Shown in pieces: positions 79 through 48,191 of a DNA stretch of 64,000 nucleotides; position 1 is the stretch's first letter; every line of letters begins with the position of its first letter. The notes below the pieces were generated by a model. It worked only from the letters and a program-made list of their open reading frames with translations, did no database searches and was not told the origin of the DNA. Origin of the DNA: an uncultured bacterium (GTDB taxonomy: Bacteria; Fermentibacterota; Fermentibacteria; Fermentibacterales; JCC-6); the NCBI GenBank assembly GCA_964553045.1, contig CAZKJG010000016.1, positions 494 through 64,493 on the forward strand. Direction: 5' to 3'. Both the position numbers and the translations under genes were made by a program.

Positions 79-194
<116 letters not shown>

Positions 195-204
195 GTTCTT
201 CAGA

Positions 205-30108: not shown

Positions 30109-31680
30109 CTACCTGGTGACCACCAGCTTCGCGGTTGCCGTGCTGCCTCCGTCGATGACGCGCAGCAGGTGCACGCCCACCGGCAGCCTTCGGGCACCCA
30201 TGGAGAAGGCGGCGGCGCCCTCCGCATCTACGTCCCGGCGAAGAAGGCACCGGCCGGAGAGGTCGTAGACCTCCACCACTGCCGGGCCGCCCAGGTTCCG
30301 TGAGAGGCTGACGGTTACCGATTCCGAGGCAGGATTGGGCGCCAGGCCCACGGTGAGCCCGCTGCCGGCGGTCTCCGCAAACCCGTCCCCCGAGACTCCC
30401 TGTCCCACCGGCTCCGCCAGGTACGCCACCGTGGCGATGGCGCCCTTTATGCAGTTGGTGCCGAAGGGGAAGTACTCCAGGTAGTTGTCGAGTATGTCGG
30501 ATGTCTGGTGGTAATAGGGGTTGCCGTAAACATCGACCTCGATATTCAGAAGCGCGGAATACCCCTCGTCCCAGAAGGAGGAGTGATCACTGTAGGTCAT
30601 GCCCGGGTTGTGGTCGACGTTTTTTTCCAGGACGGGCACGTACGTGTCGGTGATGGCGTCCATCGCCAGGGCAAGTCCCGTGGACTGGGTATCGTAGACC
30701 ACCCACAGCTGGTCGCTTCCGGTGGGGCCGTAGTAGAGCATGTCCATGTTCACCACGCCCAGAATATCGTCTCCGGCCGCGGAGGCCTGCTCGGCGTAGT
30801 AGTCGCTGCCGTACAGCCCCTGCTCCTCCCCGCCGAAGGCCAGGTAGCGGACCGTGTACTTGAAGTCGTACCCGGACATCACCCGTGCTGCCTCCAGGAC
30901 TCCGGTGGAGCCGCTTCCATTGTCGTCGGCGCCGGGGGCGTCCGTATTGGGGTAGGGCGATGTGGAGTCAAGGTGTCCGCAGATTATGTAGATCTGGGTG
31001 GAATCCTCCGTCCCGGGCTGCTCGGCTATCACGTTCTGGCAGTCGTAGCTGCCCATGGAGAAGGTCTGCTGCTCCGCCGCCAGCCCGTAGGCCTCGAACC
31101 TCGACTCCATCCAGTTGCAGGCGCTGTCGTAGTTGTCGGTGCTGGAGTACCTGGTCTGGTAGTCCTGCAGGTGCTGGGTAACGGCCAGTATGCTGTCCTC
31201 CGACACGGCATCGACTATGTCCGCCACCTCGTCGTCGTAGCCCCTGTCCGTGAGGGGTATGGTCGACGGGGCGGAGATGTGCCTCTCCTCCAGCGGCCCG
31301 ATGAAATGCACGCCCTCCATCATCGGCGGAGTGGCGGCGTCGGGGACGTCGATACGGACGATAGCGGTCCGGCCCCTGTGAAGGACGATCTCGCCCAGCG
31401 TCCGAAGGCCTTCTATGCCGGATTCGTCGCGAAGGGTGGCCAGACGGTATGCCCCCAGCTCTCCGGCGGGGTCGTCCAGAACCTCCGTCCTCTCGGCCGG
31501 AAGAACGTCCGGGTCTCCCAGAAGCACCACGAAATCGGTTCCAACGTGAACAACCATGGCTCCGCCCGCCCATTCACTTCCAGTAAGTGCGCGGGTGTCG
31601 CAGTCGAGGCTGAAAAGCGCGTCTGCGGATACGGCGAATACCGCTCCCAGCAGGAGCAGCACGGCAAGATGCTTGATCAT
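30109..31680 (-). CDS. M28 family zinc aminopeptidase with T9SS C-terminal sorting domain
   Basis: HLDS...D.GADDNGSG and EEQGLYGS M28 metal ligands. Signal peptide. C-terminal NPASESVTVSL...VEVYDLSGR...GVHLLRV CTD. Confidence 0.85.
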   Translation of the reverse strand: MIKHLAVLLLLGAVFAVSADALFSLDCDTRALTGSEWAGGAMVVHVGTDFVVLLGDPDVLPAERTEVLDDPAGELGAYRLATLRDESGIEGLRTLGEIVLHRGRTAIVRIDVPDAATPPMMEGVHFIGPLEERHISAPSTIPLTDRGYDDEVADIVDAVSEDSILAVTQHLQDYQTRYSSTDNYDSACNWMESRFEAYGLAAEQQTFSMGSYDCQNVIAEQPGTEDSTQIYIICGHLDSTSPYPNTDAPGADDNGSGSTGVLEAARVMSGYDFKYTVRYLAFGGEEQGLYGSDYYAEQASAAGDDILGVVNMDMLYYGPTGSDQLWVVYDTQSTGLALAMDAITDTYVPVLEKNVDHNPGMTYSDHSSFWDEGYSALLNIEVDVYGNPYYHQTSDILDNYLEYFPFGTNCIKGAIATVAYLAEPVGQGVSGDGFAETAGSGLTVGLAPNPASESVTVSLSRNLGGPAVVEVYDLSGRCLLRRDVDAEGAAAFSMGARRLPVGVHLLRVIDGGSTATAKLVVTR

Positions 31681-36254: not shown

Positions 36255-37181
36255 ATGGACGAAGAGAGGAAGAAGATCCTGGAGATGGTGGCCGATGGGA
36301 AGATATCGGCCGACGACGGGGCCAAGCTCCTGTCCGCCCTGGAGCAGGGCGGTGGCGAGGGCAGGCCGTCGGCAGGGAAAGGGTTCCACAGGTCCCCCCG
36401 GCATTCCCGGGGATTCGAGTCCGTGCTCTCGGCGCTCTCCGGCATAGGCCCGGCGGTGCGGAACGCCGTGGAGTCCGCCATGTCCACGTTCGACATCGAC
36501 TCGGGCGATTCCTTCGACACCGATGTATACGAGGACCTGGAAGTCTTAGACTATGCCGCCGGCGCCGTAGAGGTCCCCGAAGGGTGCAGGCTGGTCTTCC
36601 GGACCCGAAGGCGGGAGGGGGGTAACCTCGAGCTGCAGGGGCACGAAGAGAGCACACTGCTGGTGGACGGCGATACGGAGGGCCTGAAGGTGATGGGCGA
36701 CGGGGAGATGATCGTGGTCGTCTGGGGCGATGGCCTTCTGAAGGCCGGTGTCCCCGCTTCGGCCCCTGTGGAGGTAAGGACCACCGGCGGCGATGTCTGT
36801 GCCTCGGGCATGTCCCGTGAGCTCAGGGTGAAGACCCTGGGAGGCAGCATCACCATGGAGGACGTTCGGGGCGCCCTCTCGGCGAAGACCATGGGCGGCT
36901 CCATCGTGCTCAGCGCTTCCGGAGGGCTCTCCGGAGCCTGCGCCGCCAAGACCATGGGCGGGGACGTATCCGTCACGCTGCCCACGGGGGCGGTATCCTC
37001 GCTGAGCGCCAAGACCCTGGGAGGCGAGGTGAGCATCGACGAGTCCCTGGGCCGGGTGGACCTGCAGGGCGGCCCGGGCTCCAGCAGGGGGACCCTGAGC
37101 TGCGAGGGCGGCGCCGACTCTTCGCTCTCGGTGAAGACGCTGGGCGGAAACATATCCGTGGAAAGGCGAGAGGATGGATGA
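36255..37181 (+). CDS. DUF4097 (YvlB/LiaG-like) beta-strand repeat protein
   Basis: N-terminal helical module (MDEERKKILEMVADGKISADDGAKLLSAL) then repeated VKTLGGSI / AKTMGGSI / AKTLGGEV / VKTLGGNI beta-repeats. Confidence 0.7.
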   Translation: MDEERKKILEMVADGKISADDGAKLLSALEQGGGEGRPSAGKGFHRSPRHSRGFESVLSALSGIGPAVRNAVESAMSTFDIDSGDSFDTDVYEDLEVLDYAAGAVEVPEGCRLVFRTRRREGGNLELQGHEESTLLVDGDTEGLKVMGDGEMIVVVWGDGLLKAGVPASAPVEVRTTGGDVCASGMSRELRVKTLGGSITMEDVRGALSAKTMGGSIVLSASGGLSGACAAKTMGGDVSVTLPTGAVSSLSAKTLGGEVSIDESLGRVDLQGGPGSSRGTLSCEGGADSSLSVKTLGGNISVERREDG

Positions 37182-37539
37182 GAACAGGGTACCTCCGCGA
37201 TGCCCCTCCTGCGGGGCCGCCATGCGGGTGGTTCGAGTGGAGTGTCCGGTATGCGGAACGGAAGTGACCGGTGACTTCGAACTCTGTCCCGCGTGCAGGC
37301 TGGGCGACGACCACCGAAGGATCTTCGACGCCTTTCTGCGGGCCCGCGGCAACGTGCGTGCCGTGCAGGGTGAGCTGGGCGTTTCCTATCCGACCGCCAG
37401 ACAGCGGATAGAGGAGATGTTCAGCGTTCTGGAGAAGGGCCCGCCGAGACCGGATCCCATGGTGGTCCTGAAGAAGCTGGAGGCCGGGGAGATAGACGTG
37501 GGGGCCGCTGCGGAGCTGCTGGCCGGAGGTGGCGGCTAG
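37174..37539 (+). CDS. DUF2089-like zinc-ribbon/HTH protein
   Basis: CPSCG...CPVCG zinc ribbon, a second CPAC pair, then a helical HTH-like C-terminus. ATGGATGA overlap with the DUF4097 stop. Confidence 0.65.
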   Translation: MDENRVPPRCPSCGAAMRVVRVECPVCGTEVTGDFELCPACRLGDDHRRIFDAFLRARGNVRAVQGELGVSYPTARQRIEEMFSVLEKGPPRPDPMVVLKKLEAGEIDVGAAAELLAGGGG

Positions 37540-38652
37540 CTAGGGGCGGGCTTCCGCTTCCGCCATCCAGTGCTGCAGCCTCCGCAGGCCTTCGGCCGGC
37601 ACCCGGTGTCCGCCCCGGAAGTCGAACAGCGTAACATCGTAGTCGAAGGACTCCAGCAGCCGCTTGGCCTCCATGCCCGCCTCGAACTCCACCGAGCGGT
37701 CCTCGCGTCCGTGGATTATCAGCACGGGCAGGCGGCTGGCGGCCTCCAGGACCTCGTCCGACGTATATTCCCTGTCCAGCCAGCCGGCGTTCACCACCAG
37801 GCCGTCGAAGACGTCGGGGTTGTGCAGACCGATCTCGTAGGTGAAGCCCCCGCCCTGGGAATGGCCCATCAGGTACACGCCGGAGACGGAATAGCGCTCC
37901 CGCAGGCTGCTCACGACTTCCAGCACGTACTCCTCGGCGATCGGCGCAGCCCTGTCACAGGTTTCCGTTCCGGGCTCTCCGATCATCCAGCTGTAGCCGC
38001 GGAAGTCCACGCCCTCCATTTCGAACGGCGCCCGGGGGCAGGCGAAGATGAAGTCCGGGTCATCGAACTCCCGCCACAGCCCGGAGAAGTCGTCGGGATT
38101 GCTTCCGTAGCCGTGAAGGGCAACCAGCAGCGGCAGGCGGGCGGAGGAGTCGTAATCGGCCGGCACGTGCACACGGCATGGCAGCAGGGTCCTGGACTCC
38201 ATGTACAGAGGCGTACCCAGCTCCCTCCGCCGGGCCAGTATGTCCCGGGTCAGGGTGTCGATGGCGGCCATGAAGGCCGGGTGCTGGCGTACCGGATTCA
38301 GGTCCGGGTCCCGCTCGATGTGCCCCAGGTTCGAGAAGCCGGCCTCGACCGCCAGCGCCAGATAGCGTGCTGCCAGCTCGGCCTCGCCCAGAAGCCCGTA
38401 GCAGCAGGCGAGGTTGTAGATGTTGCCGGTATCGGACACGTCGTAGCGAAGGGCCGCCAGGTAGTAGCCGGCCGCCTCCTCGTAATCGCCTGAAAGGTAT
38501 GCTTCGAGGGCCTGCCTCTCCAGCCTGGGCAGATCCACCGAGAGGAAGTCCCCCTCACGGGAGGAGTAGGGGTCTATGTCGGATACGTTCACGACCTCGT
38601 AGGAGAAGACTGCCGCGGCGGCAATCATCATCGGCAGAACGCATGCCCTCAT
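37540..38652 (-). CDS. Secreted alpha/beta hydrolase (phospholipase/carboxylesterase-like) with N-terminal TPR region
   Basis: Signal peptide. TPR-like repeats (YYLAALRYD...LACCYGLLGE). GHSQGG nucleophile elbow, C-terminal HGREDR...GGH triad candidates. Confidence 0.7.
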   Translation of the reverse strand: MRACVLPMMIAAAAVFSYEVVNVSDIDPYSSREGDFLSVDLPRLERQALEAYLSGDYEEAAGYYLAALRYDVSDTGNIYNLACCYGLLGEAELAARYLALAVEAGFSNLGHIERDPDLNPVRQHPAFMAAIDTLTRDILARRRELGTPLYMESRTLLPCRVHVPADYDSSARLPLLVALHGYGSNPDDFSGLWREFDDPDFIFACPRAPFEMEGVDFRGYSWMIGEPGTETCDRAAPIAEEYVLEVVSSLRERYSVSGVYLMGHSQGGGFTYEIGLHNPDVFDGLVVNAGWLDREYTSDEVLEAASRLPVLIIHGREDRSVEFEAGMEAKRLLESFDYDVTLFDFRGGHRVPAEGLRRLQHWMAEAEARP

Positions 38653-38683
38653 CTCAGCCTCGGGGGCTCTCGACGGCCGCGAA

Positions 38684-40642
38684 TCAGCGGCCGCCCGTGA
38701 TTACCTCCAGAACCTCGGGGAAGTCAACTCCCAGCTCCTCGAGCTTCTCCCGCCCGGGTACGCCGTCTTCGCTCCATCCCCTAAGCCGGTAGAGGGCGTC
38801 GAGGAGTCGGTTGTAGCGGTCTTCCCTGTGCTTCCGCAGGGCCGAGACCTTCTCTTCTGCGGACATGGATTCGGGGTCCGTTCCTGCCTCTTCGCGAAGC
38901 TGGCTGTCGTACATGTCCCTTCGGGTCTCGTACTCGTCCTCGGTCACCGGGCCCTGGGCACGATAGGGAAGTGAATCGTGCTCCCTGGTACCGTAGCCCA
39001 TTCGCAGGTCGAAAACCCTCCGGAAGTTGTGAACCCTCTCGGACATCTCCAGGAGGCTGCCCGGAGTCTGGCCGCTGCCGGTAACGCCCTCGAAGAGGCC
39101 GCAGTAGCTGAGCACCCTTGCCGGGGCCTTTTCCGGATCAAGTGAGTTCCAGGGAAGGCCGCACAGGCCGCAGAGGCTGAACCAGCTGTTCCAGAGCTGA
39201 GAGCTGTGGAGGGCCTCGGCCAGTTCTTCGGGCCCGCGTGGGCCATCCTTCCCGACCCCGGTGAGCATCGGCCAGCGGCCATCCTGCAGGTCGCCACCTG
39301 CACCGGCGCCGAGGGCGGCCTGATGGACGAGCGATTCCCCGGTTGCGACCTGAGGCAGTTCCAGTCCCTTGCTCTCCATTCCGATGTCTTCCAGCAGCTC
39401 CCCATCGGCGTCGTAGTGCTCCTCGAAGTAGTACTTCATGAAGCGGATGCCCTTGCCCGCAATGCGTCCGAAGCCCCTGGACTCCGCCACGGCATGCAGC
39501 AGGGCGAGGGCGGCACCGTCGTTTCCGAATTCGAGCTTCAGGCCGTCGGTCTTCTCCGCGTCGAGTATGCCCTGCTCGAAGCACTCCATGACAAAGGCTG
39601 TCGAGGTGGCGAAGGAGATGGGATCGATTCCGTAGGTTCCGCAGTAGAAGCAGTACTCCATGACGAAGTCGGGATCGAAGATGCCCATGTTGGAGGCTCC
39701 GGCGACCACTCCGTAGTCCGGGCCCTCCACAGAGACGGGTTCCCCTGCGTAGGGGCCGGTCTGCGGCTCGAAGCCCGAGACCGACTTTCGGCAGGATAGC
39801 CCGCAACCCAGCCAGCAGGCGTCTGTACTTCCGGTGTCGAAGTATGGGGAGAGGGATTCTTCGTACAGGCACTTCGCGTCTTCGTGGCCGTATGCGCGGC
39901 AGTTGGCCACCGGAAGGAGGTTGGCTTCGCTCATGCTCTCGATGAGTCGGGCGGTTCCCGAACGTCGCAGACCTCCCTGAACGCCCCGGGAGAATACGAT
40001 ATCGCGTGTGATCTCCATACCGGCTCTGCGGATCGCGTCCGCGTCGCCGGGCGCACCGGGATGGTCGTGAAGGCTCAGGGCTTCGGTGGGGCAGACCTCC
40101 ACGCATATCCCGCAGCCGGTACAATACCCGTCATCCGGCCGGGGAATGCTCAGCCTGCGCTCGGAGCCGCTCCCGGCGAAGCTGATGACTTCCTGTCCGT
40201 TAAGCCGGCGACAGGCCTGGACGCAGAGACCGCAGAGAATGCAGGCCCTCGGGTTGCAGTCAGCCCCGCGAACTGCGGGGCGCGGCCGCTGTATTCCGTG
40301 GGAGCGCGCCATCTCGCGAATGGCCTCGACCTTTGGCCATCGGGCGTAGAGCAGCTCCAGCACATTCCTGCGGTGCGACACCACTCTTTCCGAGGAGGTA
40401 TCCACCTTCAGATCGCTGCGAACGGGGAAGGTGCAGGAGGCGACCAGCCGCCTGCCGCCGCCGTCATCCACCTCGACCATGCACAGCCGGCAGGCGCCGT
40501 AGGGCTCCGTCAGGGGGCTTCCGCAGAGCGCGGGTATTCCGACCCCGGCCATCTCCGCCGCCTCCATGACCGTGGTATCACGCGCCACCTCGACCACTTC
40601 GCCTTCCAGATCGACCTTGAACATCTCCCGATCACCCATCAT
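38684..40642 (-). CDS. Chimeric subunit: HydA/NuoG-like N-terminal Fe-S module ([2Fe-2S] plus 2x[4Fe-4S]) fused to AOR catalytic domains 2-3
   Basis: N-terminus: 2Fe-2S ferredoxin fold (CGSPLTEPYGACRLCMV), CILCGLCVQAC, CTGCGICVEVCP. C-terminus: AOR-family motifs CWLGCGLSC ([4Fe-4S] ligands) and GIDPISFATSTAFVMECFEQGIL (the AOR D.IS.G..A.AMEL.E.G pterin-domain motif). ATGATGA start/stop overlap with the upstream gene. Confidence 0.8.
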   Translation of the reverse strand: MMGDREMFKVDLEGEVVEVARDTTVMEAAEMAGVGIPALCGSPLTEPYGACRLCMVEVDDGGGRRLVASCTFPVRSDLKVDTSSERVVSHRRNVLELLYARWPKVEAIREMARSHGIQRPRPAVRGADCNPRACILCGLCVQACRRLNGQEVISFAGSGSERRLSIPRPDDGYCTGCGICVEVCPTEALSLHDHPGAPGDADAIRRAGMEITRDIVFSRGVQGGLRRSGTARLIESMSEANLLPVANCRAYGHEDAKCLYEESLSPYFDTGSTDACWLGCGLSCRKSVSGFEPQTGPYAGEPVSVEGPDYGVVAGASNMGIFDPDFVMEYCFYCGTYGIDPISFATSTAFVMECFEQGILDAEKTDGLKLEFGNDGAALALLHAVAESRGFGRIAGKGIRFMKYYFEEHYDADGELLEDIGMESKGLELPQVATGESLVHQAALGAGAGGDLQDGRWPMLTGVGKDGPRGPEELAEALHSSQLWNSWFSLCGLCGLPWNSLDPEKAPARVLSYCGLFEGVTGSGQTPGSLLEMSERVHNFRRVFDLRMGYGTREHDSLPYRAQGPVTEDEYETRRDMYDSQLREEAGTDPESMSAEEKVSALRKHREDRYNRLLDALYRLRGWSEDGVPGREKLEELGVDFPEVLEVITGGR

Positions 40643-42483
40643 CGAACCTCCACGGCCTCGAAGCTGCACACATCCCTGCACATGCCGCAGCGGATACATG
40701 TTCGATCGTCTATTCGGTGGGTCTCGCCGGGCTCACCCGAGATCGCACCCACGGGGCAGACCTCGGCACAGGCCGTGCATCCCGTGCACTTTCCCTTGTC
40801 GATGCTGAACCGGATCAGCTCCGGACATTCAGCCGCCGGGCACCTGCTCTCCTCGATGTGGGCCGAGTACTCCTGGGGGAAGTTTCGGATGGTGCTCAGT
40901 ACCGGGCCTGCCGCCCGCTGTCCCAGGCCGCATATGCTGCACTCGGCCATAGTGTCTCCCAGCTCCTGCAGAAGACCTGTGTCCTCCCTGGAGCCCTCCC
41001 CCCGGATGATCCGTCCCATTACCTCCGACATGGCCGCCAGCCCCTCTCTGCAGGGGACGCACTTGCCGCAGGACTCCTCCAGCAGAAGGTCGATGCAGTA
41101 GCGGGCGTAACGGACCATGCAGGTGTCCTGGTCGATCACCGTGAGCATACCCGAGCCCATGGACACGCCGGCATCTGCCAGCGCGTCGAATTCCAGGGGC
41201 AGGTCGAGGTCGCTCTCGGGAATCAGCACGCCGGAGGGACCTCCCAGCTGCGCCGCCTTGAAGCCGGCGCTGTCCGGCGGGCCGCCGCCGATATCGAAGA
41301 TCACTTCCCTGAGCGTGATGCCCATCGGCACTTCCACCAGCCCGGTGGCGGCAACGCTTCCCGACAGCCCGAGCACCTTGGTGCCGGAGGAGTTTTCGGC
41401 GCCCTTGGAGGCGAACCACTCGGGGCCCCTTGCGATGATGGAGGGCACGCACGCCAGGGTCTCGACGTTGTTCAGAACCGTCGGCCTGCCCAGAAGGCCT
41501 TTCTCGAAGGAGGGGACATAAAGGTCATGGGCCTCGGGCGGAAGCCCGGCAAGTGCGGCCATGAGCGCCGAGGACTCGCCGCAGACGAAGGCCCCCTCGC
41601 CCCTGTGCAGATCGACATGGAAATCGAAGCCCGTACCGAGTATGTCCTCTCCCAGCAGCCCCCGGTCAGCCGCCTGCTCGATGGCCCGGCCGAGCCTCTT
41701 CAGTGCAAGGGGATACTCACGTCTGGTGTAGATGTATCCCCGTCTGGCTCCCGTGGCATAAGCGGCGATGAGCATCCCCTCGAGGATCGAATGGGGATCC
41801 GACTCGACGATCCTGGCGTCCTTGAACCCCCCCGGGTCGCTGTCTTCTGCGTTGCAGACCAGGAGGGGCTCTTCACCCGCGCTCCCGGCGGCCTCCCTGC
41901 AGCTGCGCCATTTCGCGCCCGTATGGGCTCCCCCTCCGCTCCTGCCGCGCAGCCCAGAGCTCACCACGGCTTCGACTACCTCTTCGGGCTTCATCTTGTC
42001 CAGTACCTCTGCCAGGGCACCGTATCCCCCTGCTCCCAGATAGTCGTCCATGCTCTCGGGGTCGGTCTGAGTGCGGTTCTGCAGGACGACCAGCTCCTGT
42101 TTTCCGAAGAATGGCACATCCTCGACGCGGGGACATATCTTGTCGCCGCTGCGGTACATCAGCCTCTCCACCGGCTTGCCGTCCTCGAGGTGCTGGGCGA
42201 TTATGTCCGCGAGGTCGTCGCCGCCCACCCTGGTGTAGAGGATGCCGTCGGGCTGCACAAGCACCAGCGGCCCCTCTGCACAGAAACCCAGGCATCCGCT
42301 CCGTACGACCAGGTACTCCTCGGAGAGGTCCCTCTTGATGAACTCGCCCACCAGCCTGTCGTAGAGGCCCGAAGACTGCCGGGCCCCGCAGCCGGTCCCG
42401 GTGCAGACCAGGATGGTCTTCCTGTAGTCCTGGCGCCTCCTGCGGGCCCTTTCCTGCAGATCCTTCAGCTCCTCAAGCGTCAT
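40639..42483 (-). CDS. HydB/HoxF/NuoF-like NAD(P)H-binding flavoprotein with N-terminal thioredoxin-like [2Fe-2S] and C-terminal 2x[4Fe-4S]
   Basis: GAGGYGA NAD/FMN region, FVCGESSALMAAL, ESCGKCVPCREG (N3 cluster). N-terminal CTGTGC...CLGFC. C-terminal CTGCTACAEVCP and CIRCGMCRDVC. Confidence 0.85.
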   Translation of the reverse strand: MTLEELKDLQERARRRRQDYRKTILVCTGTGCGARQSSGLYDRLVGEFIKRDLSEEYLVVRSGCLGFCAEGPLVLVQPDGILYTRVGGDDLADIIAQHLEDGKPVERLMYRSGDKICPRVEDVPFFGKQELVVLQNRTQTDPESMDDYLGAGGYGALAEVLDKMKPEEVVEAVVSSGLRGRSGGGAHTGAKWRSCREAAGSAGEEPLLVCNAEDSDPGGFKDARIVESDPHSILEGMLIAAYATGARRGYIYTRREYPLALKRLGRAIEQAADRGLLGEDILGTGFDFHVDLHRGEGAFVCGESSALMAALAGLPPEAHDLYVPSFEKGLLGRPTVLNNVETLACVPSIIARGPEWFASKGAENSSGTKVLGLSGSVAATGLVEVPMGITLREVIFDIGGGPPDSAGFKAAQLGGPSGVLIPESDLDLPLEFDALADAGVSMGSGMLTVIDQDTCMVRYARYCIDLLLEESCGKCVPCREGLAAMSEVMGRIIRGEGSREDTGLLQELGDTMAECSICGLGQRAAGPVLSTIRNFPQEYSAHIEESRCPAAECPELIRFSIDKGKCTGCTACAEVCPVGAISGEPGETHRIDDRTCIRCGMCRDVCSFEAVEVR

Positions 42484-42499
42484 GATCGCAAGCCCCTCT

Positions 42500-42964
42500 C
42501 TATTCGAAACGCGCCAGGAGGTCGCCGACCTCCGATGGTCTCACAGTACCCACAACCTCGCCGTTTACGGCTACGGCGGGGGCCAGTCCGCAGCAGCCCA
42601 GGCATCTCACCCGTTCCAGCGAGAACCTGCCGTCTTCGGTGGTCTCCCCCTCCTCAATGCCCAATTCCCTCTCCAGAGCCGACATCAGCCTGGGGGCGCC
42701 CTTCAGAAAGCAGGCGGCGCCCATGCAGACCTGGATATTCCTCTCCCCCCGGGGCTTCAGGCTGAAGCCCGAGAAAAAGGTAGCCAGATGGAAGAGCCTT
42801 CCCCGGGGTACGCCGATCAGCAGAGCCAATCTTCCCAGGGCCTGCTCGGGTATGTACCTGTAGATCTCCTGGACGTCCTGCAGCATCTCGGTGGCGTACT
42901 CGGGGTCGCGGTTCCATCTCTGCACAATGCGGTCGATTCTCTCCAGGGCATCCACCCTAATCAC
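42500..42964 (-). CDS. HydC/HoxE/NuoE-like thioredoxin-like [2Fe-2S] subunit
   Basis: CMGACFLKG...CLGCCGLAP cluster motifs. GTG start inferred near 42955-42964 at the AOR-N stop; plus or minus 9 nt uncertain. Confidence 0.7.
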   Translation of the reverse strand: MIRVDALERIDRIVQRWNRDPEYATEMLQDVQEIYRYIPEQALGRLALLIGVPRGRLFHLATFFSGFSLKPRGERNIQVCMGAACFLKGAPRLMSALERELGIEEGETTEDGRFSLERVRCLGCCGLAPAVAVNGEVVGTVRPSEVGDLLARFE

Positions 42965-43793
42965 CACCCTCGTCGCAAGGATCGCCGCCACAGGGGATTT
43001 CCTCCTCCAGGACCAGCTTGGAACATGCGGCAGGGGCCTTGACCACAAGGGCCTTAAGGCCCTTGCGCCGAAACACCGAGCCGGCTCCCCCCCGGCCACC
43101 CTGGAAGGTCCGTATCGTCCTCCCCCGGGGGTCCCACCATGAGAGGCCGAGTGAGCCGATCCAGCTGTTCTCTGCACCCCTGCCGGCGGTGACAGTGGAG
43201 AGCAGCCTGCGATCTTCGTCCTCCCCGGAGTACATCTCGAAGAGCTCACGCACCGCCAGGTGGGTGTCCGTGGAGAGTAGCGGGCTCTCTTCCAAGGTTA
43301 CCCGGCCCTCGGTGCCGTCAATTCTCACGATGACGTCCGTTTCCGCCTTGCCCACCAGCACCAGCCCGTCGAAGCCGGCGAACTTCAGCAGGGGTCCGAA
43401 ATGGCCGCCGGCGCTGGAATCCACGACCGCCCCGGTAGTGGGTGATATTGTCGCAATGGAGGAGTATCCCGCACCGGGAAACAGCGCCGTGCCTCCGAGG
43501 GGCCCGGATGATATGCATATGGGATTCCCGTCGCTGTCCCACTTTGTCTTCGGAGTGGTCTCCTGCCAGGCCATGAGGAGGTTGAATCCCCTGCCTCCGA
43601 CGAAGAGGTCCTTCATGCTCTCGGTTACGGGAACTGTCCTGAAGGAGGGCTCGGATACGTTCACTCTGAGTATCTCGCCCGTGTAGCCCTTCGCGGCCCC
43701 TCTGGGATCGTAGGAGAACTCCGCCAGGACCTTCTGAGCCTTCAGAATATCCCGGGCTGTCCGCTTCTCGGCCATGCGCATCCCCCGGTTCAT
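42957..43793 (-). CDS. AOR N-terminal domain (domain 1) as a stand-alone protein
   Basis: Collinear with the AOR N-domain: GYTGEILRVNVSE, GGRGFNLLM, GPLGGTALFPGAGYSSIATISPTTG, GGHFGPLLKFAGFDGLVLVGKAE, VTAGRGAENS. Ends after about 210-240 aa, without domains 2-3. Confidence 0.8.
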   Translation of the reverse strand: MNRGMRMAEKRTARDILKAQKVLAEFSYDPRGAAKGYTGEILRVNVSEPSFRTVPVTESMKDLFVGGRGFNLLMAWQETTPKTKWDSDGNPICISSGPLGGTALFPGAGYSSIATISPTTGAVVDSSAGGHFGPLLKFAGFDGLVLVGKAETDVIVRIDGTEGRVTLEESPLLSTDTHLAVRELFEMYSGEDEDRRLLSTVTAGRGAENSWIGSLGLSWWDPRGRTIRTFQGGRGGAGSVFRRKGLKALVVKAPAACSKLVLEEEIPCGGDPCDEGGD

Positions 43794-44038
43794 CTGGAGC
43801 TGACGGCTTGTTTCTGCCGGCTCATCGCCAATTGCCAGTGTATTACTCTACCCACTGAGCCGGTTATGGACAATACCCATCCAACTCTTTTTCACTGAAA
43901 GATGGACGGTTAGGCTCACATTCGGAAGGGTTTGTCCGTCGAAGCCGGGACGATCCTGTCCAGGGGAGGCTTGACTTGATAAATGGCCGTCACAATCCTT
44001 ACCCTGAGAGTGTGTATTTCCATGGGGAAGGAGGATAC

Positions 44039-45052
44039 ATGAGAGCTTTGCTTCTTCTTGCGCTGGTTCCGGCCATAGCCTTTGGGGCGAGCGTGGTCAA
44101 GACGATAGATGCCCCCGATAGCGGCATCGCCGGCCTCGCCTGGGGCTCGGGAAGCCTGTGGGCGTCGGACGGAGGCACCGGCAACGTGTACGAGCTGGAC
44201 CCCGCTGACGGAACGGTTCTCAGCTCGTTCTACTGCGACAACGGAACACCCGGGGGGCTGGCTCACATGTCCGGCGACCTCCACGTGCTCAACTCCGAGT
44301 CGGGCACCTACGTCGGCTACGTCTACAAGTACTCCGAGGGAGGGTCCTACCAGGGCGCATACGACACGACCTGTTGAGGCAGCGCCCTCTACCAGTCGGT
44401 GACTGGTATAGCTTCCGACAACACATCTTACACCTACGTCCTTGGAGACGGCTACTACGACGACCCCGTCGTCGAGTACTTCAACAGCAGCGGCAACGTG
44501 GGAACCTCTCCCTACATGCAGGACATGCCGGCCCTGTCCTCGCACTACGACATAGCCTACGAGGGCGGCGACGGCGACGGCGACATATGGGTCGCCTGCG
44601 ACGCGGCCGACAGTCCCATAAGATCATACGACACCGACGCTCAGATGGTTGCCTGGGTGTCCGGGGGCGATCTGCCCTCCGGCGCGCAGATTCGGGGATT
44701 GACCTTCGATACCAACGGATACCTCTGGGCCAGCGACTACAACGCCCAGAAGATCTACCAGATCGATCTGACCAGCGGCGCCGCCGAGGGAGTCAGCTCG
44801 ACGGTAGGAGGCATGGCCCTTTCCGTTTCCAGCAACCCGTTCTTCGGTTCGGTCACCCTCAGCCTCAGTGGCGTGGAGGGGACCGCCGAGCTGGCCGTCT
44901 TCGACCTCGCCGGCAGAACGGTTGCCCGGGAGCGGATCGGGAGCGGCTCTTCGATTGCCTGGAACGGGGAAGGAGTGCCCAGCGGCACCTACCTTGTCCG
45001 CGCCACCACCGAAGACGGTGTCTCGGCCACCAGGCTGGTCACCAAGCTCTAG
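44039..45052 (+). pseudogene. Secreted beta-propeller-like (NHL/SGL-like) protein with T9SS CTD, interrupted by an in-frame TGA
   Basis: ATG at 44039 after GGAAGGAGG. Signal peptide MRALLLLALVPAIAFG. In-frame TGA at 44375-44377 (YDTTC*GSALYQ) joins two same-frame ORFs. C-terminal SSNPFFGSVTLSL...LAVFDLAGRTV...GTYLVRATT CTD. Confidence 0.5.
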
Positions 45053-45200: not shown

Positions 45201-45890
45201 TCAGGCCCGTACCTGTACCTCTTCCACATAGGGCTCCACGGCCCGCGCGGTCTCCTCCAGATACCCCTTTGGATAGGGGGGGAGGTCGCGGTAGGCGTCC
45301 GACAGGGTCTTGCCGCCGCGGAATCTCTGAAGGACGTAGCGCTGGAAGGGGCCGTGCGTTCGAAGTATTCGCTCCACGCCCTCCTTGTCCACGATGCCGG
45401 GAACCATGGTGGTTCGGATCTCGTAGGCCGGAAGTGCCCTGATCATCTCCAGGCTCTCCACGACATCATCGAATCGGGCGTGACCTCCGGTGGCTTTCCC
45501 GTAGGCTCCCGGCGCGGCCTTGAGGTCCATCGCCACGTAGTCGACCAGGTCCAGGACCTCCCGGAGCCTCTTCGGCAGGGTACCGTTCGTGTCCAGCTTC
45601 ACCGGAAGGCCGGTTTCCCTGCGCACGCTGAGAATGAAATCGGACAGGCCGGGGCTGAGAAGGGGCTCACCGCCGGTTATGGAGACTCCCTCTATGAAGC
45701 CATCCCGGGCCTTGAGGCGGTCGAGGACGATGTCGGCCGACAGGGTGTACTGGTCCGCCAGGAGGTCGGGACGCACCAGCTCGGGGTTGTGGCAGAAGGG
45801 GCAGTAGAGGTTGCAGCCACCGAAGAAGACCACCGAGGCTATCTTGCCGGGGTACTCTATGAGGCTGGTTCCCTCGAAGGAGCGGATCAA
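45201..45890 (-). CDS. nrdG: Anaerobic ribonucleoside-triphosphate reductase activating protein (radical SAM)
   Basis: CNLYCPFCHN radical-SAM motif close to the N-terminus, typical NrdG size. Non-ATG start, exact start uncertain. Confidence 0.8.
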   Translation of the reverse strand: MIRSFEGTSLIEYPGKIASVVFFGGCNLYCPFCHNPELVRPDLLADQYTLSADIVLDRLKARDGFIEGVSITGGEPLLSPGLSDFILSVRRETGLPVKLDTNGTLPKRLREVLDLVDYVAMDLKAAPGAYGKATGGHARFDDVVESLEMIRALPAYEIRTTMVPGIVDKEGVERILRTHGPFQRYVLQRFRGGKTLSDAYRDLPPYPKGYLEETARAVEPYVEEVQVRA

Positions 45891-46072
45891 CTCCCGGATT
45901 CCTGCGCGGAGCCGATGCTCACGTACTCGCGCTGCTCGAACTCTTCGCGCTTGCCGCGGTTCCAGTCCTGCACCGGACGGTAGTAGCCCACTACCCTGGA
46001 GTAGACCTCGGTCCTTACGGCTTTGATCCTGGTTCCCCTGTCGATTCCCTCTTCCGAGCGCGCGTCTGCCAT
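45887..46072 (-). CDS. Small protein carrying an NrdD-type glycyl-radical motif (RVVGYYRPV...WNRGK)
   Basis: 61-aa ORF MADARSEEGIDRGTRIKAVRTEVYSRVVGYYRPVQDWNRGKREEFEQREY.... ATG one nt after the nrdD TGA, with GGAG/AGGTG upstream. Stop overlaps the nrdG start. Confidence 0.55.
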   Translation of the reverse strand: MADARSEEGIDRGTRIKAVRTEVYSRVVGYYRPVQDWNRGKREEFEQREYVSIGSAQESGS

Positions 46073-46073
46073 T

Positions 46074-48191
46074 TCAGATCTCCACCTTTCCAACCTCCAG
46101 AGAGAGGCTCCTCTGGTTGGAGCTCTCCCCGCTCTCGTGCATGACCCTGTAACTCCCCTCCTGTAGGAGGTCTCCGCCGTTCCAGACCATTTCCATGCCG
46201 TGCTTGGCTATCTCCTCGTCGGTGTGCGGGTAGGGACATACGAAGTGCTCGCCGGCTATGTAGCCGTGAACGGGGCATATGGAGAAAGTGGGAGTAAAGC
46301 TGAAGTAGGGAAGGCTGAAGTTCTCCACTACGGTTCTGGCCAGCTTTCGGACCATCTTCCAGTCCGTGATGGCCTCTCCTATGAACACGTGCACCACGGT
46401 CCCGCCGGTGAACTTGCCCTGCAGGGGGTCCTGATGGCCCAGAAGCTCGAACATGTCGGTCCTAACGTCCACCGGCAGATGGACGGAGTTGGTGTAGTAG
46501 CGGTTCGTGCCCCCCATCGCGGCAGCGTCCGGGAACCTTTCGAGGTCCTTTCGGGCCAGCCTGTAGGAGGCCCCTTCGGCCGGAGACGCCTCCAGGTTGT
46601 ACAGGTGGCCGCTCTCGTGCTGGAACTCCGTGAGCTTGTCGCGCATGAAGTCAAGGACCTCCAGAGCCCAGTCACGGGACCGGGAGTCCTCGATGCCCTG
46701 GCCTGTGAAGTTGATGCAGGCCTCGTTCATGCCGATGAGGCCGACGGTGGAAAAGTGGTTGGCCCAGTACGATCCCTGCTCGCTCTTGATGCTGCCCAGG
46801 TAGTGGCGCGTATAGGGGTAGAGTCCCCGGTCGGTCAGTTCCTCTATGAGCCCCCGCTTCAGCTCCAGCGACTCCCGCGCCGCCTCCATGACCGCGCTGA
46901 GCCGGTTGTAGAACTCGTCGTGGTTGCCGGCTGTGTAGGCTATCCTGGGCAGGTTTACGGTCACCACTCCGATGGAGCCGGTGAGCGGGTTCGACCCGAA
47001 AAGCCCGCCGCCGCGCTTTCGCAGCTCGCGGTTGTCCAGCCGAAGACGGCAGCACATGCTGCGGGCGTCGTCGGGGTCCATGTCCGAGCCCACGAAGTTG
47101 CTGAAGTAGGGGATGCCGTACTTGCCCGTCATCTCCCACATGGGGCGCAGCTCCTCGTTGTCCCAGTCGAAGTCCTCGGTAAGGTTGTAGGTGGGAATGG
47201 GGAACGTGAATATCCTCCCCTTCTCGTCACCCTCCATCATCAGGCGGGAGAATGCGCGGTTGAAGACGTTCATCTCCTCCTGGAAGTCGGCGTAGGTCAG
47301 CTCCCGCTCCCCGCCGCCCACCACCACTTTGCGTTCGGCCAGCGAAGGCGGGACCTTGAGGTCCATGGTGATGTTGGTGAACGGCGTCTGAAAGCCGACC
47401 CTCGTGGGGATGTTCACATTGAAGAGGAACTCCTGCAGACACTGCTTGACCTCGTTCTCGTTGAGGCGGTCGTAACGGATAAACGGGGCCAGCAGGGTAT
47501 CGAAGTTGGAGAACGCCTGGGCACCGGCCGCCTCCCCCTGCAGGGTGTAGAAGAAGTTCACTATCTGCCCCAGTGCCGTCCTGAGGTGCGAGGGAGGTGC
47601 CGACTCGATCTTGCCCCTGGCCCCCCGGAAGCCGTACCGAAGCAGCTCCATCAGGTCCCAGCCCACGCAGTAGGGGCCGAGTATGCCGAGGTCGTGTATG
47701 TGCATGTCGCCGTTGTCGTGGTACTCCTTTATGCGTGGTGTGTAGATCTTGCTCAGCCAGTACCTGGCCGTGATGGAGGAGGAGAGGTAGAAGTTCAGAC
47801 CCTGGAGGGAGTAGTTCATGTTGGAGTTCTCGTTTACCCTCCAGTCCTCCCGGCCGATGTAGTCGCCGACCAGGCCGTCGATTCCGCTGAATATCCGGTC
47901 GACCTCGCGGGCCTCGTTGCGCTTCTCGCGGTAGAGGATGAAGGCCCTGGCCGCGGCGGTCAGGCCCCGCAGCACAAGGGTCTCCTCGATGAAATCCTGT
48001 ATCTGCTCTACGGTGGGGACGGTGCCGCCCTTGAAGAATTCCATGTACAGTGCGGCCTCCACCTGGCCGGCCAGGTCCGCCGGGCTCTCTTCGCTCTCGC
48101 CGACCCTGAGGGCCTTCTCGATGGCCAGCTGGATCTTCCTCTTGCGGTAGGTGGCAATCCGTCCGTCACGCTTGCGTATCAACCAGTCCAT
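46074..48191 (-). CDS. nrdD: Anaerobic ribonucleoside-triphosphate reductase (class III) with ATP-cone, apparently lacking its C-terminal glycyl-radical motif
   Basis: N-terminal ATP-cone (IRKRDGRIATYRKRKIQLAIEKAL), class III RNR core, degenerate Zn site CPVH...CPYPH. The ORF ends without an RVxGY motif. Confidence 0.9.
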   Translation of the reverse strand: MDWLIRKRDGRIATYRKRKIQLAIEKALRVGESEESPADLAGQVEAALYMEFFKGGTVPTVEQIQDFIEETLVLRGLTAAARAFILYREKRNEAREVDRIFSGIDGLVGDYIGREDWRVNENSNMNYSLQGLNFYLSSSITARYWLSKIYTPRIKEYHDNGDMHIHDLGILGPYCVGWDLMELLRYGFRGARGKIESAPPSHLRTALGQIVNFFYTLQGEAAGAQAFSNFDTLLAPFIRYDRLNENEVKQCLQEFLFNVNIPTRVGFQTPFTNITMDLKVPPSLAERKVVVGGGERELTYADFQEEMNVFNRAFSRLMMEGDEKGRIFTFPIPTYNLTEDFDWDNEELRPMWEMTGKYGIPYFSNFVGSDMDPDDARSMCCRLRLDNRELRKRGGGLFGSNPLTGSIGVVTVNLPRIAYTAGNHDEFYNRLSAVMEAARESLELKRGLIEELTDRGLYPYTRHYLGSIKSEQGSYWANHFSTVGLIGMNEACINFTGQGIEDSRSRDWALEVLDFMRDKLTEFQHESGHLYNLEASPAEGASYRLARKDLERFPDAAAMGGTNRYYTNSVHLPVDVRTDMFELLGHQDPLQGKFTGGTVVHVFIGEAITDWKMVRKLARTVVENFSLPYFSFTPTFSICPVHGYIAGEHFVCPYPHTDEEIAKHGMEMVWNGGDLLQEGSYRVMHESGESSNQRSLSLEVGKVEI

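Follow-up and report, generated by a model that had tools for sequence, protein, structure and literature searches.

The DNA analysed here, referred to below as the window, is a stretch of 64,000 nt from an uncultured bacterium of the Fermentibacterota (contig CAZKJG010000016.1), and all coordinates are positions within it. Four consecutive open reading frames (ORFs) occupy its minus strand from 43793 to 38684, and an earlier note on this sequence had read them as an operon for a HydABC-like enzyme built from a split aldehyde:ferredoxin oxidoreductase (AOR). We performed Pfam and NCBIfam profile searches with the four window proteins, and each domain assignment made in that note was recovered (Table 1). 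The first gene, taken to be an AOR N-terminal domain alone, encodes just this (AOR-N): AFOR_N was its sole Pfam match, and its PDB matches were 1aor, 9mqx_D and 8c0z, over residues 3-127 and beyond. Its product is 278 aa long from the ATG at 43793, and gene callers favour 272 aa from 43775. The NuoE/HydC-like [2Fe-2S] protein that follows (BfuC) has an uncertain start, placed by the gene call at a GTG at 42991; it carries candidate [2Fe-2S] ligands at Cys 89, 94, 130 and 134, and the HydC and WorC subunits of bifurcating complexes were its best PDB matches (E 4e-38 to 8e-36). The third product (BfuB), predicted as a NuoF/HydB-like flavoprotein with an extra [2Fe-2S] and two [4Fe-4S] domains, combines the flavoprotein core with a weak N-terminal 2Fe-2S_thioredx match, SLBB and two Fer4 domains. 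Its sites comprise an N-terminal [2Fe-2S] (B5), the FMN/NADH domain, the B1 [4Fe-4S], the B2 His/Cys site and two C-terminal [4Fe-4S] (B3/B4), and it aligned over its full length to bifurcating HydB, NiFe-HydB and WorB (E 4e-185 to 6e-176).

The fourth gene (38684-40642) encodes a fusion protein, numbered here from a 651-aa start, in which about 195 N-terminal residues form a WorA-like BfuA module and the C-terminal half is AFOR_C, that is, AOR domains 2-3 in place of the H-cluster domain of a HydA-like protein, as the note had proposed. The BfuA module contains ligands for one [2Fe-2S] cluster (Cys 39, 50, 53 and 69) and two [4Fe-4S] clusters (Cys 133, 136, 139, 143 and Cys 173, 176, 179, 183), and the His-ligated A3 site is absent from it. 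Its best PDB sequence match was WorA (9mqx_A; phmmer E 2.4e-32, residues 8-191), and Foldseek superposed the two folds with a target TM score of 0.69 and a root-mean-square deviation of 2.5 A. In the AOR part, the four [4Fe-4S] ligands (Cys 275, 279, 283 and 493) are kept and, like the Cys ligands of the BfuA module, are invariant among 32 homologues. A remnant of an [FeFe]-hydrogenase was considered and rejected. Pfam detected no H-cluster domain in the fusion, and the NCBIfam model FeFe_hydrog_A6 matched only at profile positions 2-94. The NCBIfam matches were concordant throughout, with HoxE/NuoE for BfuC, NuoF for BfuB and FeFe_hydrog_A6/HoxU/NuoG N-terminus for the fusion.

The four co-directional genes are tightly packed, as had been noted: according to the gene call, the ends of AOR-N and BfuC share about 35 nt, BfuC is separated from BfuB by 16 nt, the widest spacing in the operon, and the BfuB and fusion genes overlap at ATGA. 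An alignment that included intact relatives placed the break in the AOR at the boundary between domains 1 and 2 of the Pyrococcus furiosus (Pf) enzyme, about residue 208; AOR-N ends just past the KALVVK strand, near Pf residue 206, and about 10-15 residues lie between the final Cys of the ferredoxin-like domain in BfuA and the start of domain 2. In a Logan assembly made independently from the same sample (SRR7048227; locus L001), the four genes have an identical arrangement with one amino-acid difference, and this agreement between two assemblies indicates that the operon is not an assembly chimera. No Fer4-only (WorS-type) gene was found in or beside the operon, either in the window or in the canonical loci described below. 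A promoter consensus scan of positions 37000-44600 detected no promoter-like site, and the only terminator-like sites in this region were two on the plus strand, fewer than expected from shuffling.

The gene order was then sought in other genomes. A protein search of 5.8 billion sequences, clustered at 90% identity, returned at least 75 clusters of about 660 aa that combine Fer2_4, Fer4 and AFOR_C, with identities down to 41% and source names that include Fermentibacteria, Planctomycetota, Myxococcota, Cloacimonetes, KSB1, Armatimonadetes and Coatesbacteria. The order AOR-N, BfuC, BfuB, fusion was common to loci L002/L003, L004, L008 and L010, and a scan of GTDB species representatives added 15 further fused loci, all from metagenome-assembled genomes (MAGs), with the same order in the 11 of 11 that had enough upstream DNA. 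We call canonical those loci that lie outside the sub-clade of the window described below; 18 of them were examined, and the gene order was identical in all 14 with enough upstream DNA. The MAGs are named as Aegiribacteria, Myxococcota, Deltaproteobacteria, Cloacimonadota, Bacillota, Sumerlaeota, Planctomycetota, Krumholzibacteriota and Bdellovibrionales, that is, at least nine major lineages. In a Krumholzibacteriota MAG (L024, on a 2.1-Mb contig), a single ORF of 1139 aa contains AFOR_N, 2Fe-2S_thioredx, Complex1_51K, NADH_4Fe-4S and Fer4. Such single AOR-N-BfuC-BfuB ORFs occur in four lineages, confirmed by Pfam for L024 and L018, with L022 and L025 showing the same continuity in a stop-free ORF scan. 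A single ORF spans AFOR_N and BfuC in L016 (Pfam), L019 and L023 (both by ORF scan). By gene-fusion logic, these natural fusions argue strongly that AOR domain 1 belongs physically to the Bfu complex. A ThiS-like (WorX) gene lies 3' of the operon in 15 of the 18 canonical loci and a ThiF gene adjoins it in 11, and L002 is flanked by genes for a TOBE-type ABC transporter, ThiF, ThiS, MoaA, MoaC, MoeA and MoCF_biosynth. Taken together, these data show that the split-and-fused architecture is a real, conserved system.

Two sequence motifs also deviate from those of better-known enzymes. The AOR [4Fe-4S] motif is C-x3-C-x3-C across the clade, in split members and in intact relatives of about 716 aa, while P. 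furiosus AOR has C-x2-C-x3-C. In the region of window BfuB residues 301-325, the canonical split-type BfuBs carry CGES[ST]AL and GEPRAKY where HydB has CGEETAL and PRPRPPFP, so that the NAD site is atypical even in them. Two deviating arrangements were also observed. On a 7.4-kb contig of a Planctomycetota-named MAG (L020, 100-2882), AOR-N directly precedes BfuA::AFOR_C, ketoacyl-synthase genes lie downstream and no BfuC or BfuB was found on that contig, a pattern that could mean either a two-gene split enzyme without bifurcation or a BfuBC encoded at another locus. The BfuBs of L023 and L025 are only about 40% identical to the others and differ at 17-23 otherwise invariant columns, while their AOR parts are canonical, which hints at replacement of the flavoprotein module or at a second origin.

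The closest precedent is WorABCSL of Acetomicrobium mobile, which couples aldehyde oxidation to a concurrent reduction of both NAD+ and ferredoxin (biochemistry 2021, structure 2025), and in which cryo-EM (9mqx) revealed three WorS-WorL units that feed a single WorABC core by way of a polyferredoxin 'nanowire', with the cluster path A4-A2-A1-B1. Like the operon described here, WorABCSL (Class IV WOR/Wor-Bfu, known from A. mobile and Eubacterium limosum) joins a BfuABC-type core to an AOR-family module. WorA shares with the window BfuA module the A1, A2 and A4 sites and the lack of A3, and is its best solved-structure match in both sequence and fold; WorB and WorC match BfuB and BfuC over their full lengths, and a ThiS-like WorX accompanies the canonical split-type operons as it does in the WOR literature. 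The anatomy, however, is different. WorL is intact in WorABCSL, whereas here the AOR is divided into domain 1 and domains 2-3; the four-cluster polyferredoxin WorS, present there at 3:1, has no counterpart, and domains 2-3 are covalently joined to BfuA, which implies a 1:1 wiring. The zinc finger and C-terminal adaptor helix of WorA are replaced by the AOR domains. The AOR part itself falls in another clade, with the C-x3-C-x3-C motif and, in Foldseek alignments, about 20-24% identity to AOR-family proteins of solved structure. The window copy additionally differs from WorABCSL in lacking Glu313, Tyr427, His448, WorX and ThiF. Thus, the HydABC-like logic proposed in the earlier note holds, but an AOR linked to NAD and ferredoxin by bifurcation is not a new concept, WorABCSL having already been characterized.

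A catalytic domain placed C-terminally on BfuA, as seen here, is also found in HydABC and in the other Type 1 Bfu enzymes (Nfn-Bfu, Fdh-Bfu, as well as F420-Bfu), which share as well a BfuB with N-terminal [2Fe-2S], B2 His/Cys site and two C-terminal [4Fe-4S], and a BfuC with [2Fe-2S]. In contrast to these, the present operon has no H-cluster, GltD-like or formate-dehydrogenase domain, and the fused unit is only two-thirds of an enzyme, the remaining third being encoded at the other end of the operon or on a BfuC-BfuB protein. The nearest relatives of both AOR parts are stand-alone AORs of about 716 aa (Class I-like; P0076-P0120 and L026-L090, about 49% identity over domains 2-3) in records named Chloroflexota, Bipolaricaulota, Bathyarchaeia, Desulfobacteraceae and others. 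They share the C-x3-C-x3-C, KGAQHDEAW and DTYGID motifs and the invariant domain-1 residues with the split family, but are single polypeptides with no Bfu genes nearby in the two neighbourhoods examined. AorABC of Aromatoleum aromaticum (Class III WOR) and the BamB-I benzoyl-CoA reductase likewise couple an AOR-family subunit to an NAD(P) or bifurcating module; BamIHG are WorABC homologues, and BamB shows that a non-aldehyde active site is possible within the family. Both, however, have an intact AOR-family subunit with a separate polyferredoxin (AorA or BamC), neither a split nor a fusion to BfuA, and AorC is an FAD protein rather than NuoEF-like.

In the searchable literature we found no description of a split or BfuA-fused WOR, nor of a split or fused AOR with NuoEF, in line with the earlier note, which did not recognise the arrangement as a described system. 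The 2022 survey of Bfu enzymes places Wor-Bfu solely in Type 2, where the S and L subunits are separate, and lists no Type 1 Wor-Bfu (Schut et al. 2022); its supplement mentions neither Cloacimonadota, Sumerlaeota or Fermentibacteria nor a fused WOR. The 2026 WOR classification selected WorL by IPR013983/PF02730 and IPR001203/PF01314 in one chain and defined Class IV by WorL, WorS and WorABC. Such a rule excludes the split-and-fused layout by construction, AFOR_N and AFOR_C being on two proteins with bfuC and bfuB between them. We conclude that the operon is a member of a conserved Bfu-type (HydABC-like) pyranopterin oxidoreductase family with a WorL/AOR split at the domain 1/2 boundary; the functional concept of a bifurcating aldehyde oxidoreductase is known, and the anatomy (split WorL, no WorS, fusion to BfuA) differs. 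In canonical members, domain 1 and domains 2-3 would re-form the WorL fold around a W/Mo bis-pyranopterin, substrate electrons would leave the AOR [4Fe-4S], cross both [4Fe-4S] clusters of BfuA and the [2Fe-2S] A1 and reach B1 of BfuB and FMN, and their bifurcation to NAD+ and ferredoxin, or the reverse reaction, would proceed as in WorABCSL, with 1:1 covalent wiring and no need for WorS. The coupling of aldehyde/acid chemistry to NAD(P)H and ferredoxin predicted in the earlier note fits the canonical members, but residue and gene losses undermine it for the window locus itself.

To describe these losses, we aligned the fusion protein with the family (119 proteins), in which 172 columns are at least 95% conserved outside the sub-clade of the window. 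The window fusion differs at 46 of them and P0002, P0003, P0006 and P0056 at 46-56, compared with at most 10 in all others. Among split-type loci alone, 166 columns were invariant, of which the window fusion was changed at 45, and leave-one-out controls gave 0-12. In Pf numbering, which was assigned by alignment of the window fusion, AOR-N and intact relatives, Thr243, Glu313, Tyr427 and His448 are second-shell catalytic residues of AOR (PMC12096430; 2026 WOR classification), the last three being universally conserved in known AORs (PMC12096430). Canonical split-type relatives carry all four, as do the intact ones, while the window retains only Thr243 (Table 1). Also kept are Tyr312, the Asp343 equivalent and a Trp at the Tyr452-equivalent position, and 12 residues are deleted near residue 500. 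AOR-N is changed at 7 of 52 invariant columns, as compared with 0-4 in 15 other split-type loci, and three of the changes replace basic or Asn residues; the positions of Pf Arg76, Asn93, Arg182 and Asp338 are invariant in all other family members examined, and Asn93/Ala183 contact the Mg in P. furiosus AOR (PMC12096430). In an AlphaFold2 model of the fusion monomer, the predicted local distance difference test score (pLDDT) was 79 overall, and the stretches in which it dropped below 50 (423-435, 448-468 and 499-502) coincide exactly with the remodelled segments of the pocket. One remodelled protein, P0056 (NCBI MFO7950760.1, 564 aa, 'partial'), joins FG-GAP/VCBS repeats to its AFOR_C and probably reflects chimeric gene calling or assembly in a MAG of this sub-clade.

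The electron-transfer part of the complex changed unequally, with none of 19 invariant columns altered in BfuC and 10 of 105 in BfuB. Three BfuB motifs are affected: GRSGGGAHTG replaces GRGGxGFPxG (G182S, F186A), PPEAHDLY replaces GEPRAKY (P318A, K321L), and DPGGFKD replaces DPGAFMD (A202G, M204K in A. mobile NiFe-Bfu numbering), whereas 12-14 canonical split-type BfuBs carry DPGA[FY]MD, GFP[TA]G and GEP[RK]xKY. F186 and K321 are the equivalents of Nqo1 Phe70 and Lys202, both of which contact NADH, Phe70 by stacking on the adenine; A202 and M204 are Bfu-specific residues (Schut et al. 2022), and the Bfu-specific 'F182' of the same paper could not be mapped and was left unused. In contrast, all of the approximately 38 Fe-S ligands are kept, including the four AOR [4Fe-4S] Cys and the His/Cys of the B2 site. 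The A1 and A2 (and A4) clusters of BfuA and the [2Fe-2S] of BfuC are present, and BfuB retains the B2-B5 features (motifs DTCMV and SAHIEESRCPAAEC, the N-terminal [2Fe-2S] domain and two Fer4). The B2-B5 sites, including the B2 His525/Cys438/Cys531/Cys536 equivalents, are lacking in non-bifurcating homologues (Schut et al. 2022).

Table 1. Genes, domains, gaps and replaced residues of the split AOR operon in the window (Pf, P. furiosus AOR numbering)
Feature	Position	Strand	Evidence or remark
Gap upstream of the operon	43794..44038		Site of ThiF (MoeB-like) in L010; ThiF absent here
AOR-N (AOR domain 1 alone)	42957..43793	-	Pfam AFOR_N E 7e-42, profile positions 1-197 of 199
AOR-N K104Y (272-aa numbering), Pf Arg76 position	codon 43464-43466	-	
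AOR-N N121S, Pf Asn93	codon 43413-43415	-	
AOR-N K224F, Pf Arg182	codon 43104-43106	-	
BfuC/HydC/NuoE-like thioredoxin-like [2Fe-2S] subunit	42500..42991	-	Pfam 2Fe-2S_thioredx E 2.5e-42
BfuB/HydB-like flavoprotein, 614 aa	40639..42483	-	Complex1_51K E 8e-35; NADH_4Fe-4S E 4e-27
WorA-like BfuA module, N-terminal ~195 aa of the fusion	40055..40642	-	Pfam Fer2_4 E 5e-14 and Fer4 dicluster
AOR domains 2-3, in frame with the BfuA module	38684..40054	-	Pfam AFOR_C E 1.4e-70, profile positions 5-384 of 385
Pf Glu311 to Asp	codon 39716-39718	-	AOR domains 2-3
Pf Glu313 to Gly	codon 39710-39712	-	AOR domains 2-3
Pf Asp338 to Gly (D334G)	codon 39638-39640	-	AOR domains 2-3
Pf Tyr427 to Val	codon 39347-39349	-	AOR domains 2-3
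Pf His448 to Gln	codon 39284-39286	-	AOR domains 2-3
31-nt gap between the fusion and Abhydrolase_2 genes	38653..38683		Site of ThiS-like WorX in L010; absent here

The locus L010, which has the canonical residues and a fusion protein 58% identical to that of the window, allowed the two states to be compared in the same surroundings. Both are flanked by a 112-aa gene (79% identity), a 217-aa protein with a type IX secretion tail (70%), an Abhydrolase_2 gene (65%) and a DUF2089 pair, and these shared flanking genes indicate that the window operon is a positional orthologue of L010 and not a paralogue. L010 contains two additional genes, ThiF between the 112-aa gene and AOR-N and ThiS/WorX in the gap that separates the fusion from the hydrolase; it also encodes, upstream, a binding protein of the tungstate/molybdate type. 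WorX is a ThiS-like pterin-maturation protein (PMC13328260). Both genes are missing at these positions in the window and in its relatives L008 and L091; tblastn detected no ThiF in the entire 64-kb window, and a search for W/Mo-pterin and tungstate-transport genes, which the earlier note had called for elsewhere in the genome and which we made within the window, found no Moa, Moe, MoCF, Tup or WorX homologue anywhere in it. The absence of these genes argues indirectly against a bound W or Mo bis-pyranopterin in the window complex. Loss of ThiF and WorX thus coincides with loss of the pterin-site residues in one positional orthologue. Taken together, the window copy is a positional orthologue in a derived sub-clade that lacks AOR second-shell and pterin-site residues, ThiF and WorX, and NADH-contact and Bfu-signature residues. 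The Abhydrolase_2/FSH1-type serine hydrolase gene (37540-38652, minus strand) starts 31 nt past the fusion gene on the same strand, a position common to L008, L091 and L010 (there after WorX) and not seen in other phyla, and it may be co-transcribed with the operon in this lineage.

The remodelled clade comprises three deep lineages with 57-62% identity, in all of which the ORFs are intact, with no frameshifts or stops. In a neighbour-joining analysis of AFOR_C it was monophyletic, with a long stem (0.18) and root-to-tip distances about twice those of canonical relatives. AFOR_C is the best-conserved part among canonical pairs (66-77% identity), whereas between the window and L008 it reaches 63%, against 73-76% for BfuB and AOR-N. 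The former catalytic positions vary among the sub-lineages (G/R, V/C/Y, Q/R/N and G/T), and P0006 is intermediate in that it keeps the Tyr427 equivalent lost in the others; this variation at the old active site looks like relaxation. Since synonymous divergence between the window and its nearest relatives is saturated (about 60% amino-acid identity), the ratio of non-synonymous to synonymous substitution rates (dN/dS) was determined for the sister pair L008/L091 (89% amino-acid identity, dS about 0.2). AFOR_C gave 0.24, the most remodelled stretch 0.18 and the BfuA module 0.39, similar to the values of three neighbouring genes (0.16-0.31), so that selection maintains the proteins in the L008/L091 lineage.

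The lost AOR and pterin-site residues, the missing ThiF and WorX and the replaced NADH and Bfu residues of BfuB together suggest that the window complex is most likely not an aldehyde:NAD+/ferredoxin oxidoreductase. We favour, with some confidence, a complex that no longer carries out this chemistry, that has probably lost the pterin and that would use its Fe-S chain, and possibly FMN, for electron transfer in an altered role; the loss of the cofactor is probable on the basis of the residue and gene losses. Several points weigh against this view. A cofactor is invisible in sequence, and BamB is a tungsten enzyme with a non-canonical AOR-family active site; genes for molybdenum and tungsten cofactor (Moco/Wco) biosynthesis and for tungstate transport could lie outside the 64 kb; and bifurcation is deduced from homology, for the canonical members as well. 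The selection estimates come from a sister pair and not from the window's own lineage, and values of 0.24-0.39 are not very low. The crude neighbour-joining tree resolves no clean bipartition of fused and intact AORs, so that a single origin of the split is not established. Finally, what was tested at the equivalents of Pf Arg76, Arg182 and Asp338 is their invariance; the pterin, phosphate and Mg-loop roles assigned to them, as in the 1995 P. furiosus AOR structure, are putative.

The same purifying selection on the remodelled region (dN/dS 0.18-0.24) would also be expected if the cofactor had been kept and put to a new use, as a pterin enzyme with a non-aldehyde substrate, by analogy with BamB and benzoyl-CoA, and with a BfuB using a different nucleotide. 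In favour of such neofunctionalization, some replacements are common to the sub-lineages (e.g. E311D, S429P, K448G, L457P and YFP-to-SSQ), the [4Fe-4S] beside the pterin site is kept, and GmBCR is a WOR-family member with non-aldehyde chemistry. We nevertheless consider it unlikely, because the domain-1 basic and Asn positions and the Asp338 equivalent were replaced by lineage-variable residues, no new conserved residue that could serve as a metal ligand has appeared, the ThiF and WorX encoded in cis were lost, and AlphaFold2 has no confidence in the segments that form the pocket.

An enzyme still active in the genome of the window, that is, a HydABC-like bifurcating aldehyde:NAD(P)+/ferredoxin oxidoreductase with a tungsto- or molybdopterin, would account for the presence of all domains and Fe-S ligands, for the retained Thr243, Tyr312 and Asp343 equivalents and for intact, translationally coupled ORFs, and WorABCSL provides a close architectural precedent. 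However, it would have to work with Gly, Val and Gln at the universally conserved Glu313, Tyr427 and His448, with Asp338 and the invariant Lys, Asn and Lys of domain 1 replaced, with its ThiF and WorX neighbours gone and with altered NADH-contact and Bfu-signature residues. Moreover, the sub-lineage variation of these positions (G/R, V/C/Y, Q/R/N) is expected under a relaxed and not under a new catalytic constraint. On this evidence we regard an active enzyme as quite unlikely.

At the opposite extreme, the operon could be a decaying relic, non-functional after the loss of tungsten/pterin metabolism and on its way to pseudogenization. Both substrate sites are eroded, AFOR_C has evolved about twice as fast as in canonical relatives and has passed from the best conserved to among the least conserved parts, and the Tyr427 equivalent still present in P0006 is consistent with progressive erosion. 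Decay of this kind is very unlikely, since four intact ORFs persist without frameshifts or stops in three lineages that are only 57-62% identical, all of the approximately 38 Fe-S ligands are kept, dN/dS (0.18-0.39) is like that of neighbouring genes, and no invariant BfuC column is changed. As for an artefact, in which the 'split' would be a mis-assembly or a frameshifted intact AOR gene, this is only an a priori possibility for a metagenome-assembled contig and is refuted by the two concordant independent assemblies, by the approximately 2.3 kb of BfuC and BfuB coding sequence that separates the AOR parts, and by recurrence in at least 18 loci of many phyla, including the 2.1-Mb contig.

Returning to the favoured reading, in which aldehyde chemistry was lost and electron transfer retained, we tentatively combine it with the family-wide data into one joint proposal, on which we would stop short of relying. 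Canonical members may constitute a sixth structural WOR class, or Type 1 Wor-Bfu, which in some phyla would take a two-protein form (AOR-N-BfuC-BfuB and BfuA-AOR domains 2-3), and the sub-clade of the window may be a 'dead-site' derivative whose Fe-S chain remains under selection, which would make it either a pseudo-enzyme within a Bfu complex or a module of such a complex that has acquired new chemistry.

Further features were recorded around the operon. Proteins with the Por_Secre_tail C-terminal domain of type IX secretion flank it (44399-45052 on the plus strand, and about 30118-30384); judging from these tails and from the nearest relatives, the contig probably derives from the FCB group, close to Fermentibacteria/Aegiribacteria. 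The anaerobic ribonucleotide reductase NrdD is encoded at 45887-48191 on the minus strand (2449-4753 in L001) as a 705-aa product; a 61-aa product 1 nt past it in another frame likewise matches Pfam NRDD, and the NrdG activase gene follows (45201-45890). The two NrdD products could stem from a frameshift or from an error in sequencing, or the C-terminal glycyl-radical piece could be split off naturally. At the start of the window, where an rRNA operon probably ends, lies a complete 5S rRNA gene (79-195, plus strand; Rfam RF00001, 104.5 bits), and no tRNA gene was found in the entire 64 kb.

The family has consequences for how such enzymes are catalogued, as domain-based rules that ask for an intact WorL and a WorS miss the split-and-fused architecture entirely. 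It is present in MAGs named under at least nine major lineages, most of them uncultured. Canonical members provide a minimal, stoichiometric model of how electrons from a pterin site can reach a bifurcating flavin when no nanowire is present, with four genes, or two in some phyla, and the split at a domain boundary, with the halves fused to different partners, is an unusually clear case of gene fusion reporting on subunit contacts. For the window locus, an annotation as 'aldehyde:ferredoxin oxidoreductase' is probably wrong, and its sub-clade, set against a syntenic canonical orthologue, is a natural experiment on what such a complex is still good for once its catalytic cofactor site has gone.

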